Shown here piece by piece: positions 1 through 46,752 of a stretch of DNA of 64,000 bases; within the stretch, counting starts at the first letter, position 1, and each line of letters opens with the position of its first letter. Below the pieces are notes generated by a model. The model had not been told where the DNA came from and ran no database searches. It saw nothing but the letters and a program-made list of their open reading frames with translations. The stretch is from a virus. A program made the position numbers and the translations under genes. Location of the stretch: the IMG/VR virus record IMGVR_UViG_3300045988_087221; one strand, given 5' to 3'.

Positions 1-465
1 GATCACTTTACCATCCCAGTAGAATAATGCCTTTACACCATCAAGTTTTCTACTAATTAACCATTCTTTATTAAATATCTTAGGATTTGTAACCTTATCA
101 GCTTGTTTAGCTAATTGGGGTTTAATCACACCATACTGATTGGTCTTAACATCTCCAAATATACTAAGGAGTTCATCATCAGTATATTCGTTAGGATGTT
201 TGTCAATTTCCTTATAGCCCTTATCTAAATATTTCTTAACTTCAGAGTTAAATTGTAAAGTATATTGCTCCTGCCAATTTCTCTTCTGTTTAGTTCTATC
301 TACAATAATTTGAGGTGAGAGGGTTGTTTTTCCTCTCACCTGACCATAACTACGTTGAATTATATAACCGGCTGGTTCACAATCTGAATGCCATTCTTCA
401 TCACATTCTACAACTGCAAAACGAAATTTACCAGTACTAGCGCGTCCTAAAAGATATTTAATCAT
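1..465 (-). CDS. ATP-dependent DNA ligase, N-terminal part (gene continues beyond window start)
   Basis: Own translation from ATG (rc of 463-465): MIKYLLGRASTGKFRF...NKEWLISRKLDGVKALFYWDGKVI. KxDG adenylation motif (KLDG) lies near the window edge and the frame is open to position 1. Confidence 0.6.
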   Translation of the reverse strand, partial: MIKYLLGRASTGKFRFAVVECDEEWHSDCEPAGYIIQRSYGQVRGKTTLSPQIIVDRTKQKRNWQEQYTLQFNSEVKKYLDKGYKEIDKHPNEYTDDELLSIFGDVKTNQYGVIKPQLAKQADKVTNPKIFNKEWLISRKLDGVKALFYWDGKVI

Positions 466-634
466 TCGAGTGACTAATTATTAGTGTATATTCTGTATCT
501 CTATGTGATTTAGTCATAACATCTACAAAATTATCGAGTTCTTTAGGAATAACTAAAGATAAAATATATCCAGATTTATTATAATTACAATCCGGATCAA
601 AGGATAAGGTAGCCTTTATATCCTTTTCAATCAT
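458..634 (-). CDS. hypothetical small protein (58 aa)
   Basis: Own translation MIEKDIKATLSFDPDCNYNKSGYILSLVIPKELDNF... Start overlaps the upstream stop (TAATG) and the stop overlaps the ligase start. Below the track size cutoff. Confidence 0.3.
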   Translation of the reverse strand: MIEKDIKATLSFDPDCNYNKSGYILSLVIPKELDNFVDVMTKSHRDTEYTLIISHSND

Positions 635-948
635 TACTTACGAAACTTTTCTACAATATTCCAAAGGTCATCTACGGTTTCTGTTGGAATCTCGGAACCA
701 TCTTCATTATAGGCTTTATTTACTTCATCACCCTCAAACAAAGCAGGTCTTTCATATATCCACCAGTTAATCCAATCTACTCCATCTTCATCGAATACAA
801 TATTCCAAATTGATTCAGCAAGATCCGCTACAGTATCTCCAATAGGAAGTTCCCACAAATTAATGCCAAAATCATCCCATCTATCATATTCTTTATTTAA
901 CTTCAATGTGTCTTCAATAACCTTTGTGAATTGTTCCTTAGTAATCAT
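634..948 (-). CDS. hypothetical protein (acidic, Trp-rich)
   Basis: Minus-strand track ORF with ATG start and an intergenic AT-rich region upstream. No motif recognised. Confidence 0.6.
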   Translation of the reverse strand: MITKEQFTKVIEDTLKLNKEYDRWDDFGINLWELPIGDTVADLAESIWNIVFDEDGVDWINWWIYERPALFEGDEVNKAYNEDGSEIPTETVDDLWNIVEKFRK

Positions 949-4082: not shown

Positions 4083-4397
4083 TTAATATGGTTTAAATTG
4101 CTGTTTTACTAACTTACCTTCATTATATTCAAGAGTTCGTTCACCTTCTTCTGAATTATCAGGCTCATCTCCTTCATAATAATATTTACCATCTTTGAAA
4201 AATACTTCATCTTCTACGATAGTACAATTATAAGGAAGCCAATCTGCATCCCAATTTTCTTCAAAAGGTACGTAAACATCATACATTGATACAGCTTCTT
4301 TAGTGGTATAATAAACATCATCAAACCATCCAAAAGCTCTTAAATTACAAGAAATGTCAGTAATAGCACTGCCATCAAATTTTCCGTATAATTTCAT
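4083..4397 (-). CDS. hypothetical protein
   Basis: Track ORF, tightly packed with neighbours. No motif recognised. Confidence 0.55.
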   Translation of the reverse strand: MKLYGKFDGSAITDISCNLRAFGWFDDVYYTTKEAVSMYDVYVPFEENWDADWLPYNCTIVEDEVFFKDGKYYYEGDEPDNSEEGERTLEYNEGKLVKQQFKPY

Positions 4398-4834
4398 TGT
4401 AATAAAGATTTAAATATTTTGACAATAGTACTCTTTTGAGCAGTAGGGAATCTACTTTGAACATCTGCAATAACCCCTTTAGTGTCCTTAATAGTAAGAG
4501 TTGTTGCTTCCATTAATTCAGCAATAAGTTCTTCAATCTCCTGCTCTGAAGGCTCTTTAGGCATTATACCTAGAATATAACCAAGTTCTCTGGTCTCTTT
4601 AAGAGCTAAATCGTCACGACCAGCTTTCTCATAAATAGCTATAGCTTTTTCACGCTCTTTAGCCATTTTCTGTAAAACTTCTAATTCAGAAACAGGCTTT
4701 TCAGAATGCTTATTATTAATTAATGCAGCCTTAATTAATTTAGCCATTTCTAAAATGAAAGTGTTAGAAGTTTTTCTAGCACCTTCAATCAAGATGTCAA
4801 CTGTTTGTTCTAGTGTCTTTTTATTATCGTTCAT
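4394..4834 (-). CDS. GatB/YqeY-domain protein
   Basis: The 146-aa layout matches YqeY proteins as I remember them: ...AIYEKAGRDDLALKETRELGYILGIMPKEPSEQEIEELIAELM...KDTKGVIADVQSRF. Confidence 0.65.
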   Translation of the reverse strand: MNDNKKTLEQTVDILIEGARKTSNTFILEMAKLIKAALINNKHSEKPVSELEVLQKMAKEREKAIAIYEKAGRDDLALKETRELGYILGIMPKEPSEQEIEELIAELMEATTLTIKDTKGVIADVQSRFPTAQKSTIVKIFKSLLQ

Positions 4835-32015: not shown

Positions 32016-32229
32016 TAAATAACTTTTCAATAGATTTCTTATAATCTGAATTCTTATGTACGAAATACAGAGCACATATAGTATTTATTAGAGGGCATAA
32101 TACTATAAATAAAGTTAGCAAATTTATTTCTACTTTCTTAAGGTCCATGCGATAACTAATGTAGAAGCAACTTGCAAGATATATTACTATGCAAATAAGT
32201 CCTATAATAAGTAACTCTCCAAAACTCAT
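32008..32229 (-). CDS. small integral membrane protein
   Basis: Two TM helices (LLIIGLICIVIYLASCFYI, LLTLFIVLCPLINTICALYFV). Confidence 0.45.
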   Translation of the reverse strand: MSFGELLIIGLICIVIYLASCFYISYRMDLKKVEINLLTLFIVLCPLINTICALYFVHKNSDYKKSIEKLFND

Positions 32230-33377
32230 AATTCTTTAATATCAGAATCTTCAGACTTTCCTAGATATATATCATTTATAATACAATTACTTGTACGTAA
32301 TTGTTCTATAAAACGTATTATACCGATAATTCTTGGAGATTTATCTTGATAATCACATATAGTAGGAATGTACTTAGTCTTAAGGCAATCCCAATGAGTT
32401 ATGACAATGTTAAACTTACAATGATATGTCTCACTATAATTATCTAAACAATGTCTTTCTACAGCTCTTTTAAACAAAGGATAGTCAAAAGGACCTGTTT
32501 TAAACTCTCCTTGTGGTCCATCGTTAGTATTTGATGGTTCTTCTAGAGTAAAATACATTCCTAAGTCCATAGAATAAGGATTGTATCCATTTCCATGTCT
32601 AGTTAAATATGGACGCATAACTAAGTATACTTCTGCATTTTCTAGACACTTCTCTGGGATTCCATTTAATCCTACTTTACTAGGAGTACAGTGAGGCATA
32701 AATCCTCTTTCCATATCTAGAAGAAGACCTTGTGAACCCTCCCAAATAACAGTATCAACCTCATCAGGATAATAAGTTCCGATTATAAAAGTCTCAGGAT
32801 GTTCTTTAATAAAGGTACAAGCCTCTTTAAAAAGATCATCTAGTTTAGTGTCCCGTTCTAGATTATGATAATCCCTTACAGTCTGTAAAGCTACATCTGC
32901 ATATTCATCTGTATAAGGACACATACGAGCACTATAAGTTACATTATCTTTGTTTCTTTTAAAACAAGCATGTATACCTTTACCACAAGTTCCATTATAC
33001 TTCACTCGTCCATCCATAGAGTCAGCTAATACATCATAAGGTGTAATAACTCTACAGTTAGGATTTATATATAACTTAGGAACTTCAATACCCTCACTAA
33101 CTAAGACTTTATATTCATTATAAATACATATTGGGTCAATGAATACTTCCTTATATAAGCAAGTTGGTACTCCTAGCAAAACACCGCTTCCCCAAGAAGA
33201 ACATACGTGTGATTTACCTTTATAAACCACACGATGACCGGCTTGTGGACCTCCACTAAATCTGATGACAACAGGTTTGTAACTATTCATACATAGCCAT
33301 TGTACTACATTACCCTTACCCTCATCACCAAATAGAGATCCAAGTACTATTTGATTACGAATTTGTTTGCTGTCCAT
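32226..33377 (-). CDS. adenylosuccinate synthetase (PurA)-like protein
   Basis: GDEGKGN P-loop, SGGPQAGHRV, GTCGKGI and WEGSQGLLLDMERG...TPS...TRHGNG follow the PurA motif order. The track start is GTG; the ATG (MDSKQIRN) is at 33375-33377. Confidence 0.75.
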   Translation of the reverse strand: MDSKQIRNQIVLGSLFGDEGKGNVVQWLCMNSYKPVVIRFSGGPQAGHRVVYKGKSHVCSSWGSGVLLGVPTCLYKEVFIDPICIYNEYKVLVSEGIEVPKLYINPNCRVITPYDVLADSMDGRVKYNGTCGKGIHACFKRNKDNVTYSARMCPYTDEYADVALQTVRDYHNLERDTKLDDLFKEACTFIKEHPETFIIGTYYPDEVDTVIWEGSQGLLLDMERGFMPHCTPSKVGLNGIPEKCLENAEVYLVMRPYLTRHGNGYNPYSMDLGMYFTLEEPSNTNDGPQGEFKTGPFDYPLFKRAVERHCLDNYSETYHCKFNIVITHWDCLKTKYIPTICDYQDKSPRIIGIIRFIEQLRTSNCIINDIYLGKSEDSDIKEL

Positions 33378-34167
33378 AACTGTTAGAAACAATACGAGCA
33401 ATAGATTCACCTACATGCTCTTTATCTGAAATAATAAGATTGTCTCCTACATAAGGCTTCCAACTATCTGAAACCCTTTCTACACTATAATAACCATCAT
33501 GTTCTACATGAATGTGATAAATATCCCACTTCTCAGCGCACTCTCTGTAAATGAAAGAGGTAGCTAAATCTTCACTACACTCATCACCTATATAATGAGT
33601 TACTGCTTCTTTAGGAAGAGTTTTATGAATTGGCTCATCACTAATTGTGATTAAACAGCCTTTAATACCTCTTTTCTCCAGAGCATCGGTCTTAATATGA
33701 TTAGCAGCGAAGTACCAACACATATGAGGATCTTCTCCTCCATTGCCACCTCCTTTACCTTCAAGGTCAACTTTACGGAGCCATTTCTCCATAAGTTCAT
33801 CACTTGATTCAAACTGTCCTACTTGTAAAGGAGCCTCTTCATAACAGCCCTCTACATCGCCAAATGCCATAAAACAGATTTGAGGATTATCAATACCTGC
33901 CTTCATAATACTAGCTACACAATCTGGTAAAGTATTATCAATAAGATATTTAGGCACTTTACCCATAGAACCAGTCTCATCCAAAGCAATAATGATAGGG
34001 AATGATTCTGGGTGTTCTTCAGAATCACAAGACTCTCTGAAATTAATGTTAAGAGGATTCATTTCAGGGTCTAACTTTTTCTTGCTGAATGTCTTTTCAA
34101 TAGACTGAGATCTGTAACTATGACTTCTAGCTACAGCATCATTATACGAATAACTACCACATCCCAT
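33355..34167 (-). CDS. von Willebrand factor A (vWA) domain protein
   Basis: MIDAS motif in IIIALDETGSMG, followed by a typical alternating beta/alpha pattern. 270 aa. Confidence 0.7.
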   Translation of the reverse strand: MGCGSYSYNDAVARSHSYRSQSIEKTFSKKKLDPEMNPLNINFRESCDSEEHPESFPIIIALDETGSMGKVPKYLIDNTLPDCVASIMKAGIDNPQICFMAFGDVEGCYEEAPLQVGQFESSDELMEKWLRKVDLEGKGGGNGGEDPHMCWYFAANHIKTDALEKRGIKGCLITISDEPIHKTLPKEAVTHYIGDECSEDLATSFIYRECAEKWDIYHIHVEHDGYYSVERVSDSWKPYVGDNLIISDKEHVGESIARIVSNSYGQQTNS

Positions 34168-36228: not shown

Positions 36229-38688
36229 TTACTTGAATAACTTTTTAGCCCAATACAGGAGTTCTCTACAAACTGGTACAATTGCAGTAAGACCTACAAT
36301 CTCCAACCATGTTTCAATACTTAATGGCTCTGTTCTGAACACATCGCCACCAAATTGAACTATCAAAATTTGACCAATAAATATAACCAAACATATTCCA
36401 ATAAATGCAGGATTACTTAACAAACCATTAAAGATACTTCTGTCTTGTCCAAATACTCTTGCATTAAACAAGTTCCAGAATTGTAACATAACAAAAATAG
36501 TGAAGAACTCTGTAAGGCTATATGTATTACTAATCAGCAAATATAATAATATGCCGAAATACAAAATACCTACACCAAAGATTTCATACCACATTCTCTT
36601 TGTGATAATAAATGCCTTAGGATCACGTGGCTGTTCAGACATTACTGCTTCATTAGCTGGTTCTGTAGCCAATGCTAAAGCAGCAAAAGTATCCATAATT
36701 AAGTTAACCCATAGCATTTGGATAACAGTGAATGGTAAGTCTACCCCAATAAATGGACCTACACAAGCAATACCAATAGCTACAACATTTACAGTAAGCT
36801 GGAAAAGAATAAAGTGCTGAATATTCTTATACAAGCTTCTTCCCCACTTAACTCCTAAGATAACAGAAGGGAATGAATTATCAAGAAGAATAACATCAGC
36901 TGCATTCTTAGCAATATCAGTACCATTATTCATAGCTACACCTACTTCAGCTTGGTTAAGAGCAGCTGAATCATTAGTTCCATCACCAGTTACAGCTACT
37001 ACTTCTCCCATTCTCTGGAATCTCTTAACAAGTGTCTGCTTGTCTTCAGGTTTAGTTCTGGCAAATACATCTACTTTACGTAAATTAGTATCTGTCTGAG
37101 CTTCGACTTCCTTACCAAGCATTGTGTTAGGAGTCTGAGAGATATTAGCTTGAGCAGCGATAGAAGCAGCTGTTTCAGGATTATCACCTGTCACAATCTT
37201 AACTTTAATTCCTGCGTTTCTAGCAGCCTGAATTGCATCAGGTACATTACTTCTTACTGGGTCTTCGATAGCTACGTAGCCATCCCATATGAAGTCTGAG
37301 AGGGTATTTATATCAGAACCAATCTTGTGTGCAAAAGCAATACATCTTCTGCCTTTAGATTGTTGTTCTGCAAAATTAGGTATGTTCTCATTAGAGCAGA
37401 AATTCATTACTATTTCTGGAGCTCCCTTAATATAAGTAACTGCTCCATCACTAGTAATCATATATTTATTCTTAGAATTAAATTCTACTCTACCTGTTAT
37501 ATGAGTTTTATTTCTTTTATCGGTGATGTCAACTGACTTTTGTACATATTGCAGACAAGCACCCTCTGTAGGATTTCCTACTACTTCTCCTGCAGGACTA
37601 AGATTAGCAGTAGAATTAAGTACAATATTATTTATGACAGCATTTCTATCTGTAAAGTCCTGGAATACTACTTTCATTTTATTCTCTGTAAGAGTTCCTG
37701 TCTTATCAGTAAGAATAAGAGTTGTAGCACCGAGAGTTTCACAAGCATGCATCTTTCTAATAAGGTTATTAGCTTTAGCCATTCTCTTCATAGAATAAGC
37801 AAGAGCAAGAGTTACCGCCATAGGTAAACCTTCTGGTACTGCTACTACAATAAGAGCTACTGCAATCATTAAGAATTGTAAGCAATCATTTACAATATCA
37901 ATAGTATCTTTGCCTACATATCCTTGCTCTATAAATATATAACGTATAGCAAGAGACACAATAAGGATACCTGCAGCTGTGAATGCTATCTTATTAATTA
38001 AGCTAGCTAATCCATTAAGCTGTTTATTAAGAGGTGTTTCTACATCAGTAATAGAAGATGCTTCTCTAGCAGTCTTACCTACTTCTGTTTCATCTCCTAC
38101 TGCAAATACTTCACCTACACAAGTACCCTCAGCTACAATAGTGCTTTTATAAATTCTATTTGTAGGATAGGTAGCAGTCTCTGATTCAAAATTAGTTTTA
38201 GTTACAGGATTTGTTTCTCCAGTTAAAGAAGCTTCACTTACCTTCAAATTGCTATATTCTCTAACAATAATATCGGCAGGAACTTCTTCACCAGCTTCAA
38301 GTATTACAATATCCCCTACAACTAAGTCTTTACGAGCTACTTGAATTACTCCATTATCTCGTCTTACCTTAACTAGAGTATCATCACTACTAGTTAAAAG
38401 AAGGTCAAACTTTTTAGCTGCTGACCAGGTATTCCAAAAACCAATACCTACAGCTAAAGCAATGGCTACAATAATACCAATAGGCTCTGTAAATTCACCC
38501 TTTACAAATCCTAAGGCAATAGATACTGCAGCTGCAATAAGTAATATTACAATAAGTGGGTCTTTAAATCCATCAAGTAACATTACATACCAAGCATCTC
38601 TCTTCGGAGGTGTCAATACATTAATGCCATGTCTAGCACGTGAATCTTCTACTTCTGTTAAGCTAAGACCGTAATTTATATCTGTCAT
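36229..38688 (-). CDS. P-type ATPase, type II (Ca2+-transporting family)
   Basis: LTGETNPV (TGE), DKTGTLT, VPEGLPMAVT (PEGLP), VTGDNPETA and VTGDGTNDSAALNQAEVG, about 10 TM segments, and an N-terminal cation-ATPase-N-like start. Confidence 0.92.
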   Translation of the reverse strand: MTDINYGLSLTEVEDSRARHGINVLTPPKRDAWYVMLLDGFKDPLIVILLIAAAVSIALGFVKGEFTEPIGIIVAIALAVGIGFWNTWSAAKKFDLLLTSSDDTLVKVRRDNGVIQVARKDLVVGDIVILEAGEEVPADIIVREYSNLKVSEASLTGETNPVTKTNFESETATYPTNRIYKSTIVAEGTCVGEVFAVGDETEVGKTAREASSITDVETPLNKQLNGLASLINKIAFTAAGILIVSLAIRYIFIEQGYVGKDTIDIVNDCLQFLMIAVALIVVAVPEGLPMAVTLALAYSMKRMAKANNLIRKMHACETLGATTLILTDKTGTLTENKMKVVFQDFTDRNAVINNIVLNSTANLSPAGEVVGNPTEGACLQYVQKSVDITDKRNKTHITGRVEFNSKNKYMITSDGAVTYIKGAPEIVMNFCSNENIPNFAEQQSKGRRCIAFAHKIGSDINTLSDFIWDGYVAIEDPVRSNVPDAIQAARNAGIKVKIVTGDNPETAASIAAQANISQTPNTMLGKEVEAQTDTNLRKVDVFARTKPEDKQTLVKRFQRMGEVVAVTGDGTNDSAALNQAEVGVAMNNGTDIAKNAADVILLDNSFPSVILGVKWGRSLYKNIQHFILFQLTVNVVAIGIACVGPFIGVDLPFTVIQMLWVNLIMDTFAALALATEPANEAVMSEQPRDPKAFIITKRMWYEIFGVGILYFGILLYLLISNTYSLTEFFTIFVMLQFWNLFNARVFGQDRSIFNGLLSNPAFIGICLVIFIGQILIVQFGGDVFRTEPLSIETWLEIVGLTAIVPVCRELLYWAKKLFK

Positions 38689-46020: not shown

Positions 46021-46060
46021 AATACAAAAATCCCTGAACTATATAGGTAGCCCAGGGATT
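46021..46060 (-). terminator. rho-independent terminator after tmRNA
   Basis: Minus strand reads AATCCCTG-GGCTACCTATATAGTT-CAGGGATT followed by TTTTGTATT. Confidence 0.65.
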
Positions 46061-46097
46061 AAAATAACGTTAAATAATAAAAACAGTTCTATGAACC

Positions 46098-46433
46098 GGT
46101 GGAGCATTGGAGAGTCGAACTCCAGTCACTCCGATTTGCATCAAAACATTCTTACAGCATAGGTTTTAAAGACTATCCTTGTCTGCTAGGGTTGACAAGA
46201 TTAACATATTGTCAACTTCCACCACTCTGTTCCTAAAGTATACAGAGAACTTACAAAAGAAATGGAAAATAGTGCACCTTTCTGTTCCTAAGCAAGTGCT
46301 GCTCGGCTTCTCAGGCTGCGATAGCGTAAGAAGCGGAAGTGTTATTTACTTCGCCAATTAATTTTTTACTTGTCTATCCAAGTTGTCTTGCTGTGTTCCT
46401 TATCTCCTCGAAGTTCAAAACCACGAATGCCCC
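46098..46433 (-). ncRNA. ssrA: tmRNA (SsrA), one-piece, predicted tag GEVNNTSASYAIAA
   Basis: 5' GGGGCATTCGTGGTTTTGAAC pairs with the 3' ...ATGCTCC-A-CC (G3:U70). T-arm GGAG-TTCGACT-CTCC. An internal tag frame ends YAIAA-TGA. Confidence 0.8.
46311..46355 (-). other. tmRNA tag reading frame (resume codon GGC to TGA)
   Basis: GGC GAA GTA AAT AAC ACT TCC GCT TCT TAC GCT ATC GCA GCC TGA, read on the minus strand. Confidence 0.65.
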
Positions 46434-46752
46434 ATTTAAAAGAGTCCTAATAGAACTCTTTAATATCTTCTGATTCTTCTACTATATGGAGAACCCATAT
46501 CATACCAATCATCTGGATCTATTCTATCTTCGTCACCCATAATCTAAAAATTAATTAATGTTAAAAACTATATGTTAATCTGTTTCTTTTCGGAATCATC
46601 TTCTAAATAATATAATTCTGTTTATTATACGGAAAGCCCTTTTAACTGCAGGTATTTTGGAATCATCTGGATGTAAATGATAATTCCTAATAACTACATT
46701 AGCCTCATGTAGTTTCTTGATTTCTCTTAAACTATACATAAATATGACTTTA

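Follow-up and report, generated by a model that had tools for sequence, protein, structure and literature searches.

A virus record from IMG/VR (IMGVR_UViG_3300045988_087221) carries what looks like a complete tmRNA gene, and the question it raises is whether the phage has a working ribosome-rescue RNA of its own and what it would need one for. Throughout, the window is the whole stretch of 64,000 nucleotides that was analyzed. ARAGORN and the Rfam model RF00023 agree on a one-piece, full-length tmRNA at 46098-46433 on the minus strand. ARAGORN reads the tag as GEVNNTSASYAIAA*, with its coding part at gene nucleotides 79-123 (window 46355-46311), and a search of the whole window with RF00023 gave a match at 46097-46433 (-) that spans the model end to end (1-374) with 51.0 bits (E=3.7e-17). 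This allele is 4 bits above the gathering score of 47, barely over the threshold because its pseudoknot region aligns poorly, with low posterior probability; in close relatives the score rises to 65-69 bits. Read directly from the sequence, the RNA begins with GGGGCAUUCGUGGUUUUGAAC. An A-rich single strand, AAAAAAUUAAUU, leads into GGC...GCC UGA, the GGC sits at the consensus resume codon of the Rfam alignment, and the in-frame stop lies within helix 5. The base after the terminal CC is G, and therefore the CCA end is not fully encoded. The gene is uninterrupted, with no group I intron in its T-loop. The first-pass annotation, made from the letters alone, had proposed a complete gene with 5′ half, tag and 3′ half, had read the acceptor stem with its G3:U70 pair, the T-arm and the tag frame as we do (Table 1), and was right on each of these points, the covariance model now adding its agreement.

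The gene had also been described as bracketed by hairpins. The one on the 5′ side is present, and probably terminates the upstream gene or forms a piece of a precursor leader. For the terminator claimed downstream, our scan found a 13-pair hairpin; the scan returned 2 terminator-like sites against 0.4 expected. The other site, a hairpin that abuts the 3′ end of the RNA, had gone unnoticed. Sigma-70-like promoter sites occur at chance level (5 against 4.0 expected) under a model that is ill-suited to Bacteroidota, and no promoter was assigned.

Table 1. Parts of the tmRNA gene and its flanking hairpins, in window coordinates, ordered along the transcript
Feature	Position	Strand	Basis or remark
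Hairpin AAGAGU..ACUCUU, 6 nt upstream of the tmRNA	46440..46460	-	sequence; kept in relatives
tmRNA (ssrA), one-piece standard form	46098..46433	-	334 nt to discriminator A, plus CC; kept in relatives
Acceptor stem 5′ strand GGGGCAU, with G3 of the G3:U70 alanine identity pair	46427..46433	-	sequence
D-loop analogue UCGUGGUUUUGA, Bacteroidota-type GGUUUUGA	46415..46426	-	sequence
Helix 2a 5′ strand ACUUCGA, partner 46128-46134	46408..46414	-	covariation
Simple hairpin ACUUG-GAUAGA-CAAGU, where other tmRNAs have pseudoknot 1	46368..46383	-	covariation
Tag frame GGC..GCC UGA = GEVNNTSASYAIAA plus stop, resume codon GGC	46311..46355	-	ARAGORN; Rfam alignment
Helix 5 hairpin GCUUCU/AGAAGC around tag end and stop codon	46306..46334	-	covariation
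Pseudoknot-region core	46168..46304	-	candidate PK2, PK3, PK4 pairings
Candidate PK2 GAGCA/UGCUU + GCAC/GUGC	within 46168..46304	-	drawable pairs
Candidate PK3 CUCUGU/ACAGAG + ACUUU/GAAGU	within 46168..46304	-	drawable pairs
Candidate PK4 stem UUGACA/UGUCAA	within 46168..46304	-	drawable pairs
Helix 2 3′ strand (UGCUGU, GUUUU, UCGGAGU), partner 46389-46414	46128..46167	-	H2a and H2c covariation
T-arm UGGAG-UUCGACU-CUCCA (5-bp stem, 7-nt loop of UUCNNNN type)	46108..46124	-	sequence
Acceptor 3′ strand AUGCUCC (U70), discriminator A, then CC	46098..46107	-	sequence
Terminator-like hairpin CGGUUC-AUA-GAACUG (46084-46098) and U-run, abutting the 3′ end	46074..46098	-	terminator scan; kept in relatives
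Second terminator-like hairpin, 13 pairs, and T-run	46029..46060	-	terminator scan

Comparison of related alleles demonstrates that the tmRNA fold is under selection. Across the alignment, 99.6% of the tested pair cells are paired, as against 38-46% when the partners are slid, 12 pairs have changed on both sides in a compensatory manner, and the covariation score of 0.212 (0.088 in shuffles) was reached by 0 of 500 shuffles. In the acceptor stem, where pairs were counted per sequence instead of per alignment column since the 5′ ends come out staggered in MAFFT, 27/27 distinct alleles form all 7 pairs, with three compensating haplotypes and G3:U70 never lost; the T-stem of the same 27 alleles has four haplotypes, every one fully paired. 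Both-side changes affect 5 of the 7 pairs of helix 2a, which remains 100% paired, and H2a, H2c and H2d together are 98-100% paired with 6 compensatory pairs. Helix 5 contributes another two (C-G/U-A and C-G/A-U) at 98.8% pairing. At the position of pseudoknot 1, the stem CUUG/CAAG becomes GUUG/CAAC in relatives, while the third base of the loop is freely U, G, C or A, and the loop is therefore probably unpaired; PK1 appears to be reduced to a plain hairpin. Pseudoknots can be drawn for PK2 and PK3, two mutually exclusive pairings are possible for PK4, and most PK2-PK4 pairs are invariant among the relatives, with the PK3 segment 100% identical in 26 alleles. The core is also more conserved than its surroundings (PK3 100% and H2 96-98%, against 84-89% identity in flanking DNA). 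The tmRNA feature as a whole is far beyond chance.

The resemblance to Bacteroidota tmRNAs that had been suggested in the first reading holds up against a sample of 101 of them. Like the one-piece tmRNAs of this phylum, for example Bacteroides ssrA, the phage RNA has the acceptor G3:U70 pair and a UUCGNNU T-loop (the T-loop starts with UUC in 100/100 Bacteroidota tmRNAs), a D-loop analogue of the type GGUUUUGA, which is present in 62/101, a tag that starts with GGC GAA (Gly-Glu) and ends in YA[L/I]AA, a long helix 2, and a helix 5 around the stop codon. It shares with them the absence of CCA from the gene, which just 6/101 encode. It differs in being shorter than all 101 (334 nt, against 353-674 nt with a median of 396), in having a plain hairpin at the PK1 position, and in having no smpB adjacent to it or encoded by the phage. 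Its tag is likewise longer than theirs, as had been claimed: 14 residues, where 90/101 host-type genes encode 9-residue tags of the form GE.NYALAA. A 14-residue tag is long for Bacteroidota and ordinary among tmRNAs overall. Outside the tRNA-like 3′ end the sequences are dissimilar. In blastn against the 101 Bacteroidota tmRNAs, alignment is confined to a stretch of 50 nt and about 28 nt at the 3′ end; the search for a donor host thus matched only the tRNA-like end, and none of the 101 is near-identical.

The gene is phage-encoded and not host contamination. Phage genes for replication and nucleotide metabolism flank it on both sides, and the same flanks recur in 34 IMG/VR contigs, 55 metagenome contigs and GenBank MT835492. 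A 21-mer from the core occurs in these 34 viral and 55 human-gut metagenome contigs, which reach 242 kb, and has 0 matches in 185,579 bacterial and archaeal species genomes; the same locus is kept in 88 related contig sequences, the two collections partly overlapping. Since no sampled host ssrA is nearly identical and the core is absent from the species genomes, the gene belongs to a diverged phage lineage and is not a recent capture. No integrase domain is among the Pfam families listed for the window, in line with the earlier statement that this is not an attP remnant, and Pfam searches of the eight ORFs flanking the tmRNA, the PurZ neighbors and other small ORFs returned nothing informative. 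Pfam found no SmpB in the window, and an SmpB HMM found none in a 121.6-kb relative or in any flank (best E=2). The query sequences were validated as PF01668 in Pfam, and none of the 120 bacterial ssrA flanks in the control set carried smpB. With no SmpB gene found, host SmpB is presumably used. The earlier suggestion of a phage translation and ribosome-rescue toolkit is only loosely supported: a YqeY gene exists, at 4394-4834, and lies about 41 kb away beside NrdD/dUTPase, and SmpB is not encoded. The phages are roughly 100-240 kb in size and come from the human gut. Membership in phAss-1/'Phassvirus' was rejected, this being a different group with predicted Clostridia hosts, and a crAss-like assignment was unsupported, the head protein matching only two unannotated GenBank records.

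Among the relatives, the gene is a mosaic. Three tRNA-like-domain cassettes (TLD-1, TLD-2 and TLD-3) are combined in many ways with four main tags. About 270 nt separate the 5′ strands of the tRNA-like domain and H2a from their 3′ strands, yet the two ends are always co-inherited as matched sets, while the tag between them reassorts. In one pair of alleles (L013 and L018) the flanks are 97-98% identical and the 272-nt interior has 3 differences, yet both ends are swapped. The tags are 14-16 residues long, and the four main versions differ in their N-terminal halves and in their ends (YAIAA or YQAAA). The tag frame is open and closed by UAA or UGA in 88/88 alleles, so the frame predicted from one sequence is kept in every relative, and within a tag class most substitutions are synonymous. 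TLD-3, found in 36% of alleles, has GUAUUUGA as its D-loop analogue and GGCAGUA as its T-loop, a non-canonical sequence outside the UUCNNNN type and outside all known variation, and the activity of these alleles is uncertain. We found no literature description of such reshuffling of tRNA-like-domain and tag cassettes at the population level.

Some relatives are interrupted. A group I intron (RF00028, 86-87 bits) is present in two relatives (L034 and L019) and in 5/55 metagenome contigs, inserted after the second T-loop base, at subsite 3, with U at position -1 and a terminal G, and its internal guide sequence covaries with the exon. This is the same site as in known tmRNA genes with a group I intron in the T-psi-C loop, and subsite 3 has been reported from class Bacteroidia only (PMC11915505). 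Unlike those genes, the intron carrier here is a phage gene, and the window gene itself is intron-less. The 867-nt intron holds, on the opposite strand, an ORF of 209 residues in which no LAGLIDADG endonuclease is recognizable; its sole Pfam match is a weak zinc-finger hit.

The lineage is also one with a changed genetic code, a context that the first-pass annotation had missed. In MT835492, a syntenic relative that shares 30-90% protein identity with the window genome, in-frame TAGs number 4-128 in late ORFs and are absent from early ones, the major head protein requires TAG read-through, and Gln is found opposite TAG at 14%, compared with a background of 3.7%. The late genes of MT835492 read TAG as sense and, to judge from these alignments, probably as Gln. 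The recoding is seen in MT835492; the window is standard-code throughout, and the tmRNA is located in the standard-code early region. This organization resembles that of the recoded gut phages of the Lak, crAss-like, Agate, Sapphire and Jade clades, which are large, combine standard-code early genes with TAG-containing structural genes, carry tRNA genes in the early region and have predicted Bacteroidota hosts (10.1101/2021.08.26.457843). The code-change modules described there comprise suppressor tRNA, release factor and aaRS, and do not list tmRNA (10.1101/2021.08.26.457843); in the recoding papers that we searched, tmRNA is unmentioned. No canonical CUA suppressor tRNA was present in the sequence examined. 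A tRNA at 62954-63027, whose 6-nt loop CACUAA contains CUA, was considered as an amber suppressor and set aside, its identity being ambiguous because homologs have the loops CAUUAA, CGUAGA and CGUUGA. The association of tmRNA with recoding is seen in one lineage, and the sole standard-code relative compared, MT835470, which has no tRNA or tmRNA, was dropped as a contrast because it is a scaffold without the syntenic early region.

Taken together, the locus is likely a one-piece tmRNA gene that is functional, encoded by the phage and of Bacteroidota ancestry, located in the standard-code early part of a gut-phage lineage in which TAG is recoded, probably to Gln. From established tmRNA biology we infer how it would be expressed and charged and would engage the host. 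The transcript would be trimmed to G46433 at its 5′ end and completed with CCA by a host enzyme, after which host AlaRS would charge it with alanine through G3:U70. Host SmpB and EF-Tu would then carry it to ribosomes that have stalled at the 3′ end of an mRNA, where translation would resume at GGC and end at UGA. The ribosome would be freed, and the nascent chain would gain Ala followed by GEVNNTSASYAIAA, a tag whose end is of the ...AA degron class. If tagging is active, it would leave peptides with AGEVNNTSASYAIAA, A-ARVINMTPAYQAAA or A-ARVINMTPVSYAIAA.

Why a phage would keep such a gene is a matter for more tentative proposals. Within one infection, the lineage has to turn a cell that uses the standard code over to TAG read-through, and it is possible that the phage copy is kept because this switch generates non-stop messages that need extra rescue. 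Once read-through is on, host and early-phage messages that end in TAG would be translated through to the 3′ end, the decay of host mRNA in the infected cell would add further non-stop messages, and extra rescue capacity could keep ribosomes available for late-gene expression. Read-through by nonsense suppressors does produce non-stop complexes that are handled by tmRNA, according to the account of Ueda 2002 given in PMC3985003, and in E. coli that lacks RF1 tmRNA acts at UAG (PMC6207430). If this link to recoding is true, tagging sites should map to TAG-terminated genes, with junctions at read-through 3′ ends. We offer with somewhat greater reserve the speculation that tmRNA is a dedicated part of the code switch in TAG-to-Gln phages, freeing ribosomes or replacing the host system, that selection keeps the tRNA-like-domain and tag cassettes interchangeable, and that TLD-3, with its T-loop and D-loop analogue, lies outside all known tmRNA variation. 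Such selection may reflect compatibility with the SmpB, AlaRS or proteases of different hosts, or escape from a T-loop-targeting intron homing endonuclease or nucleases.

The same facts can be read in other ways. Trans-translation with an altered, longer tag may itself be the selected function, changing the degradation rate or engaging another protease, adaptor or phage factor, for instance so that amino acids are recycled or particular products are spared or marked. The length of the phage tags beside the 9 residues of 90/101 host-type genes fits this idea, as do the four main versions reshuffled among phages. The native Bacteroides tag, GETNYALAA, is a very strong degron (bioRxiv 10.1101/2025.03.18.644028), and for phage Melnitz it has been proposed that tagging is selective (PMC9004378). 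We consider re-targeting unlikely, as every version keeps the terminal Ala-Ala of ordinary degradation tags, and it is in any case compatible with the main explanation instead of being a true alternative to it. Another view is that ribosome rescue is not the main task of the RNA, which would act as a competitor that displaces or blocks host tmRNA-SmpB, so that ribosomes paused at the many in-frame UAG codons of late messages escape abortion and their products escape destruction by the host. In RF1-less E. coli, host tmRNA tags UAG-stalled products and keeps phage and plasmids that contain UAG from propagating, a block lifted by ssrA deletion (PMC6207430), and expression in E. coli of a tmRNA-like RNA from mycobacteriophage DS6A inhibits the endogenous tmRNA (PMC11915505). 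As the phage has no SmpB, its RNA must compete with host tmRNA for the host protein, and the non-canonical T-loop of TLD-3 could bind without functioning. A pure decoy, however, needs neither a tag frame nor helix 5, and the frame is open in 88/88 alleles and invariably closed by UAA or UGA, changes within a class are mostly synonymous, and compensatory change is seen in helix 5; the tRNA-like domain of the window allele is moreover fully canonical. This makes a decoy improbable in our judgement.

It could finally be argued that the gene does nothing, being an imprecisely excised host ssrA, an attP-type fragment or an assembly chimera, since elements often integrate at tmRNA genes and pieces of ssrA are known from prophages (PMC9004378; PMC11915505). 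This reading is effectively refuted and retains hardly any probability. The gene is full length, its similarity to the 101 Bacteroidota tmRNAs is limited to about 28 nt of the 3′ end, its core occurs in none of the 185,579 species genomes, and the locus recurs with its flanks in dozens of independent phage contigs. Compensatory evolution, a core more conserved than the flanks, and the lack of an integrase domain in the Pfam listing for the window speak against a passenger as well.

The gene takes its place among phage tmRNAs that are already documented. A tmRNA was reported in 402/18,146 phage genomes, some huge phages have both tmRNA and SmpB, and phage Melnitz has a two-piece tmRNA (PMC9004378; PMC7162821). 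As in those reports, the ssrA found here is complete and sits beside tRNA genes in a large phage genome of lytic type; the role proposed for such genes is to keep the hijacked translation apparatus running (PMC9004378; PMC7162821). Unlike the RNA of Melnitz, the present one is one-piece and of Bacteroidota type; unlike the huge phages, neither the window nor the 121.6-kb relative has SmpB; and unlike previously reported phage tmRNAs, it belongs to a TAG-recoded lineage. The allele series, with three tRNA-like domains and four main tags around a constant core, amounts to a natural mutational panel that could be used to probe what AlaRS, SmpB and proteases need in gut Bacteroidota. ARAGORN and Rfam miss about one third of these genes, namely the TLD-3 alleles, and also the intron-containing ones, so surveys of phage tmRNAs probably undercount them.

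The first-pass annotation had proposed a complete phage tmRNA with a long tag, and this observation is confirmed: the minus-strand sequence reads exactly as described, ARAGORN calls a tmRNA with the same coordinates and the tag peptide GEVNNTSASYAIAA*, its coding part at gene positions 79-123 coincides with the proposed tag frame, and Rfam RF00023 matches along its whole model (51.0 bits against a gathering score of 47, E=3.7e-17). Confidence in the Rfam alignment is high at the tRNA-like ends, along the A-rich stretch and over the tag, but low across the pseudoknots. The acceptor stem GGGGCAU/AUGCUCC, followed by discriminator A, carries G3:U70, the T-arm reads UGGAG-UUCGACU-CUCCA, and the bracketing hairpins are present, with a further one past the 3′ end.

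Coordinates of the tmRNA gene, its variant alleles and other features
Feature	Sequence	Position (strand)	Remark
tmRNA gene	window	46098-46433 (-)
RF00023 match	window	46097-46433
Tag frame	window	46355-46311
Upstream hairpin	window	46440-46460
Terminator-like hairpin	window	46029-46060
Extra terminator-like hairpin	window	46084-46098	directly past tmRNA 3′ end
TLD-3 loci	L001	4017-4349
TLD-3 loci	L010-L014, L026, L027, L030-L033, L035		plus 19 metagenome loci
Intron allele	L034	9867-10743 (+)
Intron allele	L019	~397-648 (-)
Intron alleles	L189, L190, L203, L204, L211
Intron ORF (209 aa)	L034	10044-10673	strand opposite to intron
Allele with insertion	L024	6900-7359 (-)
YrlA-like (Y RNA-like) match	L024	7948-8059	weak
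tRNA-like gene	window	62954-63027 (-)	loop CACUAA
Homologues of tRNA-like gene	L165	7542-7616
	L011	4856-4928
	L022	11941-12013
	L028	1170-1242
tRNA, anticodon UUA	L011	7491-7576 (-)	ochre-suppressor type
YqeY-like gene	window	4394-4834 (-)
PurZ-like gene	window	32226-33410 (-)
P-type ATPase gene	window	36229-38688 (-)	819 aa

Proteins encoded in the window include an NrdD-like reductase, a DnaB-like helicase and further helicases, exonucleases, ATPases and a PurZ-like enzyme. Almost all genes of the window are on the minus strand, the coding density is ~90% in the standard code, and there are eight tRNA genes. Its region is 83% identical to GenBank MT835492.1, a 121.6-kb phage scaffold from human faeces deposited without annotation, and 44 window ORFs have syntenic homologues there (30-90% identity). 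Three collections were searched with a 21-nt motif of the RNA core, GGAACAGAGTGGTGGAAGTTG, which occurs in 34 IMG/VR contigs (94-225 kb) and 55 metagenome contigs (up to 242 kb; human gut wherever labelled), some of them the same assemblies, so that the counts overlap. The motif had no match across 185,579 bacterial and archaeal species genomes. Given the surrounding phage genes, the synteny and this distribution, both host contamination and an attP remnant are ruled out, the latter in agreement with the first-pass annotation.

Its resemblance to Bacteroidota tmRNAs, also proposed in the first-pass annotation, stood up to comparison. Scanning species genomes for genes encoding GE.NYALAA, the native Bacteroides tag being GETNYALAA (bioRxiv 10.1101/2025.03.18.644028), gave more than 120 loci, nearly all Bacteroidota, including Prevotella, Segatella, Bacteroides and Flavobacteriaceae, from which 101 tmRNAs were recovered. 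The phage RNA shares the GGUUUUGA motif (62/101), a T-loop starting UUC (all 100 that could be parsed) and the lack of an encoded CCA, which just 6 of the 101 genes possess. However, it is shorter (334 nt against 353-674, median 396), its tag has 14 amino acids against the 9 of the GE.NYALAA tags in 90/101 comparison genes, and it aligns along only ~28 nt of the 3′ end, with no near-identity to these host ssrA genes. We conclude that the phage gene represents a diverged lineage of Bacteroidota ancestry that resides in phages. Pfam shows no SmpB gene in the window, and a search with validated query sequences found none in MT835492 or any flank; the phage tmRNA presumably uses host SmpB.

Comparison among relatives indicates that the RNA fold is under selection. 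Complete genes numbered 35 from the window, GenBank and IMG/VR (27 distinct sequences) and 53 from metagenomes. Three haplotypes occur for the acceptor stem (GGGGCAU/AUGCUCC, GGGGAUG/CAUCUCC and GGGGCUA/UAGCUCC) and four for the T stem, every one fully paired and with G3:U70 kept in all. Across 57 pairs in 11 helices of the allele alignment, 99.6% of cells were paired, against 38-46% when partners were slid by 1-3 columns. Both sides had changed in 12 pairs (five of seven in helix 2a, four of five in the T stem, two in helix 5 and one in helix 2c), and the covariation score of 0.212 exceeded both the shuffle mean of 0.088, with 0/500 shuffles reaching it, and the slid controls (0.02-0.05). At the PK1 position the stem alternates between CUUG/CAAG and GUUG/CAAC and one loop position varies freely, suggesting that a simple hairpin takes the place of a pseudoknot there; stems can be drawn for candidate PK2-PK4, where most pairs never vary.

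Variation is greatest in the functional ends of the molecule. Mean pairwise identity among 26 alleles is 100% in PK3 (one haplotype) and 96-98% in the helix 2 strands, and falls to 74-80% in the tag, 74% in the acceptor 5′ strand and D-loop analogue, 67% in helix 2a and 66% in the T-arm; the 600-nt flanks on each side are 84-89% identical between contigs. Three tRNA-like domains, TLD-1 (the window's type), TLD-2 and TLD-3, occur with four main tags (GEVNNTSASYAIAA, GEVNNTSVSYAIAA, ARVINMTPAYQAAA and ARVINMTPVSYAIAA, besides rare variants) in at least 13 combinations, and the metagenome set agrees. The best example is a pair of contigs, L013 and L018, which are 97-98% identical in the flanks and differ at 3 positions in the 272-nt interior, while both mutually pairing ends (5′ 26 nt and 3′ 34 nt) are exchanged; matched ends are kept while the middle recombines, as expected under selection on pairing. 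TLD-3, found in 13/35 alleles and 19/53 metagenome alleles, has the T-loop GGCAGUA and D-loop analogue GUAUUUGA (AACUAGUAUUUGA), with intact stems (acceptor GGGGCUA/UAGCUCC, T-arm GACGG-GGCAGUA-CCGUC). It is missed by ARAGORN and scores at most 20 bits with Rfam, and a GGCAGUA-like T-loop was absent from all sampled bacterial tmRNAs. The sole allele from a different metagenome (3300001528), on contig L024 in a dense tRNA cluster, has a ~130-nt insertion between PK2 and PK3 and totals 460 nt, still scoring 65 bits.

In L034, in L019 and in 5/55 metagenome contigs, the T-loop is interrupted past its second base (subsite 3) by an 867-nt group I intron (RF00028, 86-87 bits) with U at -1 and a terminal G, whose predicted splicing would restore UUCGACU. 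This one intron, ~100% identical, is shared by TLD-1 and TLD-2 exons, its guide sequence covarying with the exon (GACUC/GGAGUU, GACCC/GGGGUU). Its ORF, with a weak zinc-finger as sole Pfam match, may encode a homing endonuclease. Intron-form tmRNA genes are already known, with loop subsite 3 reported from class Bacteroidia only (PMC11915505).

The lineage's genetic code may bear on function. Under the standard code, coverage by ORFs of 100 aa or more is 81-91% across most of the first 60 kb of MT835492, whereas from 60 to 120 kb it is 11-33% and rises to 90-100% with TAG read through. Every long ORF at 63-118 kb holds 4-128 in-frame TAGs, and the long early ORFs hold none; the late ones include a 3,401-aa ORF with 128 TAGs and the TAG-containing major head protein (PHROG 11589). 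Against the standard-code relative MT835470, 320 TAG positions of late genes could be aligned, and 14% of them stand opposite Gln (background 3.7%). TAG is thus recoded, probably to Gln, in late genes of the lineage, and by synteny the window's own genome would share this; the tmRNA itself belongs to the region that keeps the standard code. A tRNA-like gene in the window, whose anticodon stem has 4 bp and whose 6-nt loop contains CUA, might be an unconventional amber suppressor of ambiguous decoding identity; its family keeps the 4-bp stem, with loops CACUAA, CAUUAA, CGUUGA and CGUAGA. One relative carries a UUA-anticodon tRNA, called by ARAGORN, in a seven-tRNA cluster.

Ordinary trans-translation through host AlaRS, SmpB, EF-Tu and proteases is the best-supported reading, by which a nascent chain would gain alanine plus GEVNNTSASYAIAA. 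In a passage of PMC3985003 citing Ueda et al. 2002, nonsense-suppressor read-through yields non-stop complexes that tmRNA deals with, so a TAG-reading phage would generate them, here on TAG-terminated host and early messages once it switched read-through on, a speculative reason for carrying a tmRNA of its own; in RF1-less E. coli, tmRNA acts at UAG (PMC6207430). TAG terminates 15 of 130 window ORFs. The tag frame itself always ends in UAA or UGA (88/88 alleles), which is consistent, if weakly, with a recoding-linked role. The RNA could instead be a decoy against host tmRNA, but in its pure form this is unlikely because the tag frame is conserved; a re-targeted tag is a rival reading to ordinary trans-translation. 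Phage tmRNAs have been documented in 402 of 18,146 phage genomes (PMC9004378), and together with SmpB in huge phages (PMC7162821), so a phage-encoded tmRNA as such is of a known kind. Three aspects of it appear to lack a description in the literature searched: its occurrence alongside stop-codon recoding, the cassette-like polymorphism in which the ends stay matched, and the TLD-3 form.

The YqeY-like protein that had been grouped with the tmRNA is present, beside NrdD, NrdG-like and dUTPase genes, but its gene is not physically linked to the tmRNA, being ~41 kb away. The PurZ-like gene product, a homologue of adenylosuccinate synthetase (PHROG 1211, E=4e-43; Pfam Adenylsucc_synt), may be a sign of 2-aminoadenine (Z) DNA; no DatZ/MazZ partner was identified, and the adjoining ORFs have no Pfam matches. 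A P-type cation-transporting ATPase (E1-E2 ATPase and Cation_ATPase_C domains; PHROG 12316) is unusual phage cargo. Pfam also identifies two TerD-domain proteins, a Tad2-like (Thoeris anti-defence) domain, a YkuD-type L,D-transpeptidase domain, an SPFH/Band 7 protein and an acyl-carrier (PP-binding) protein in the window.
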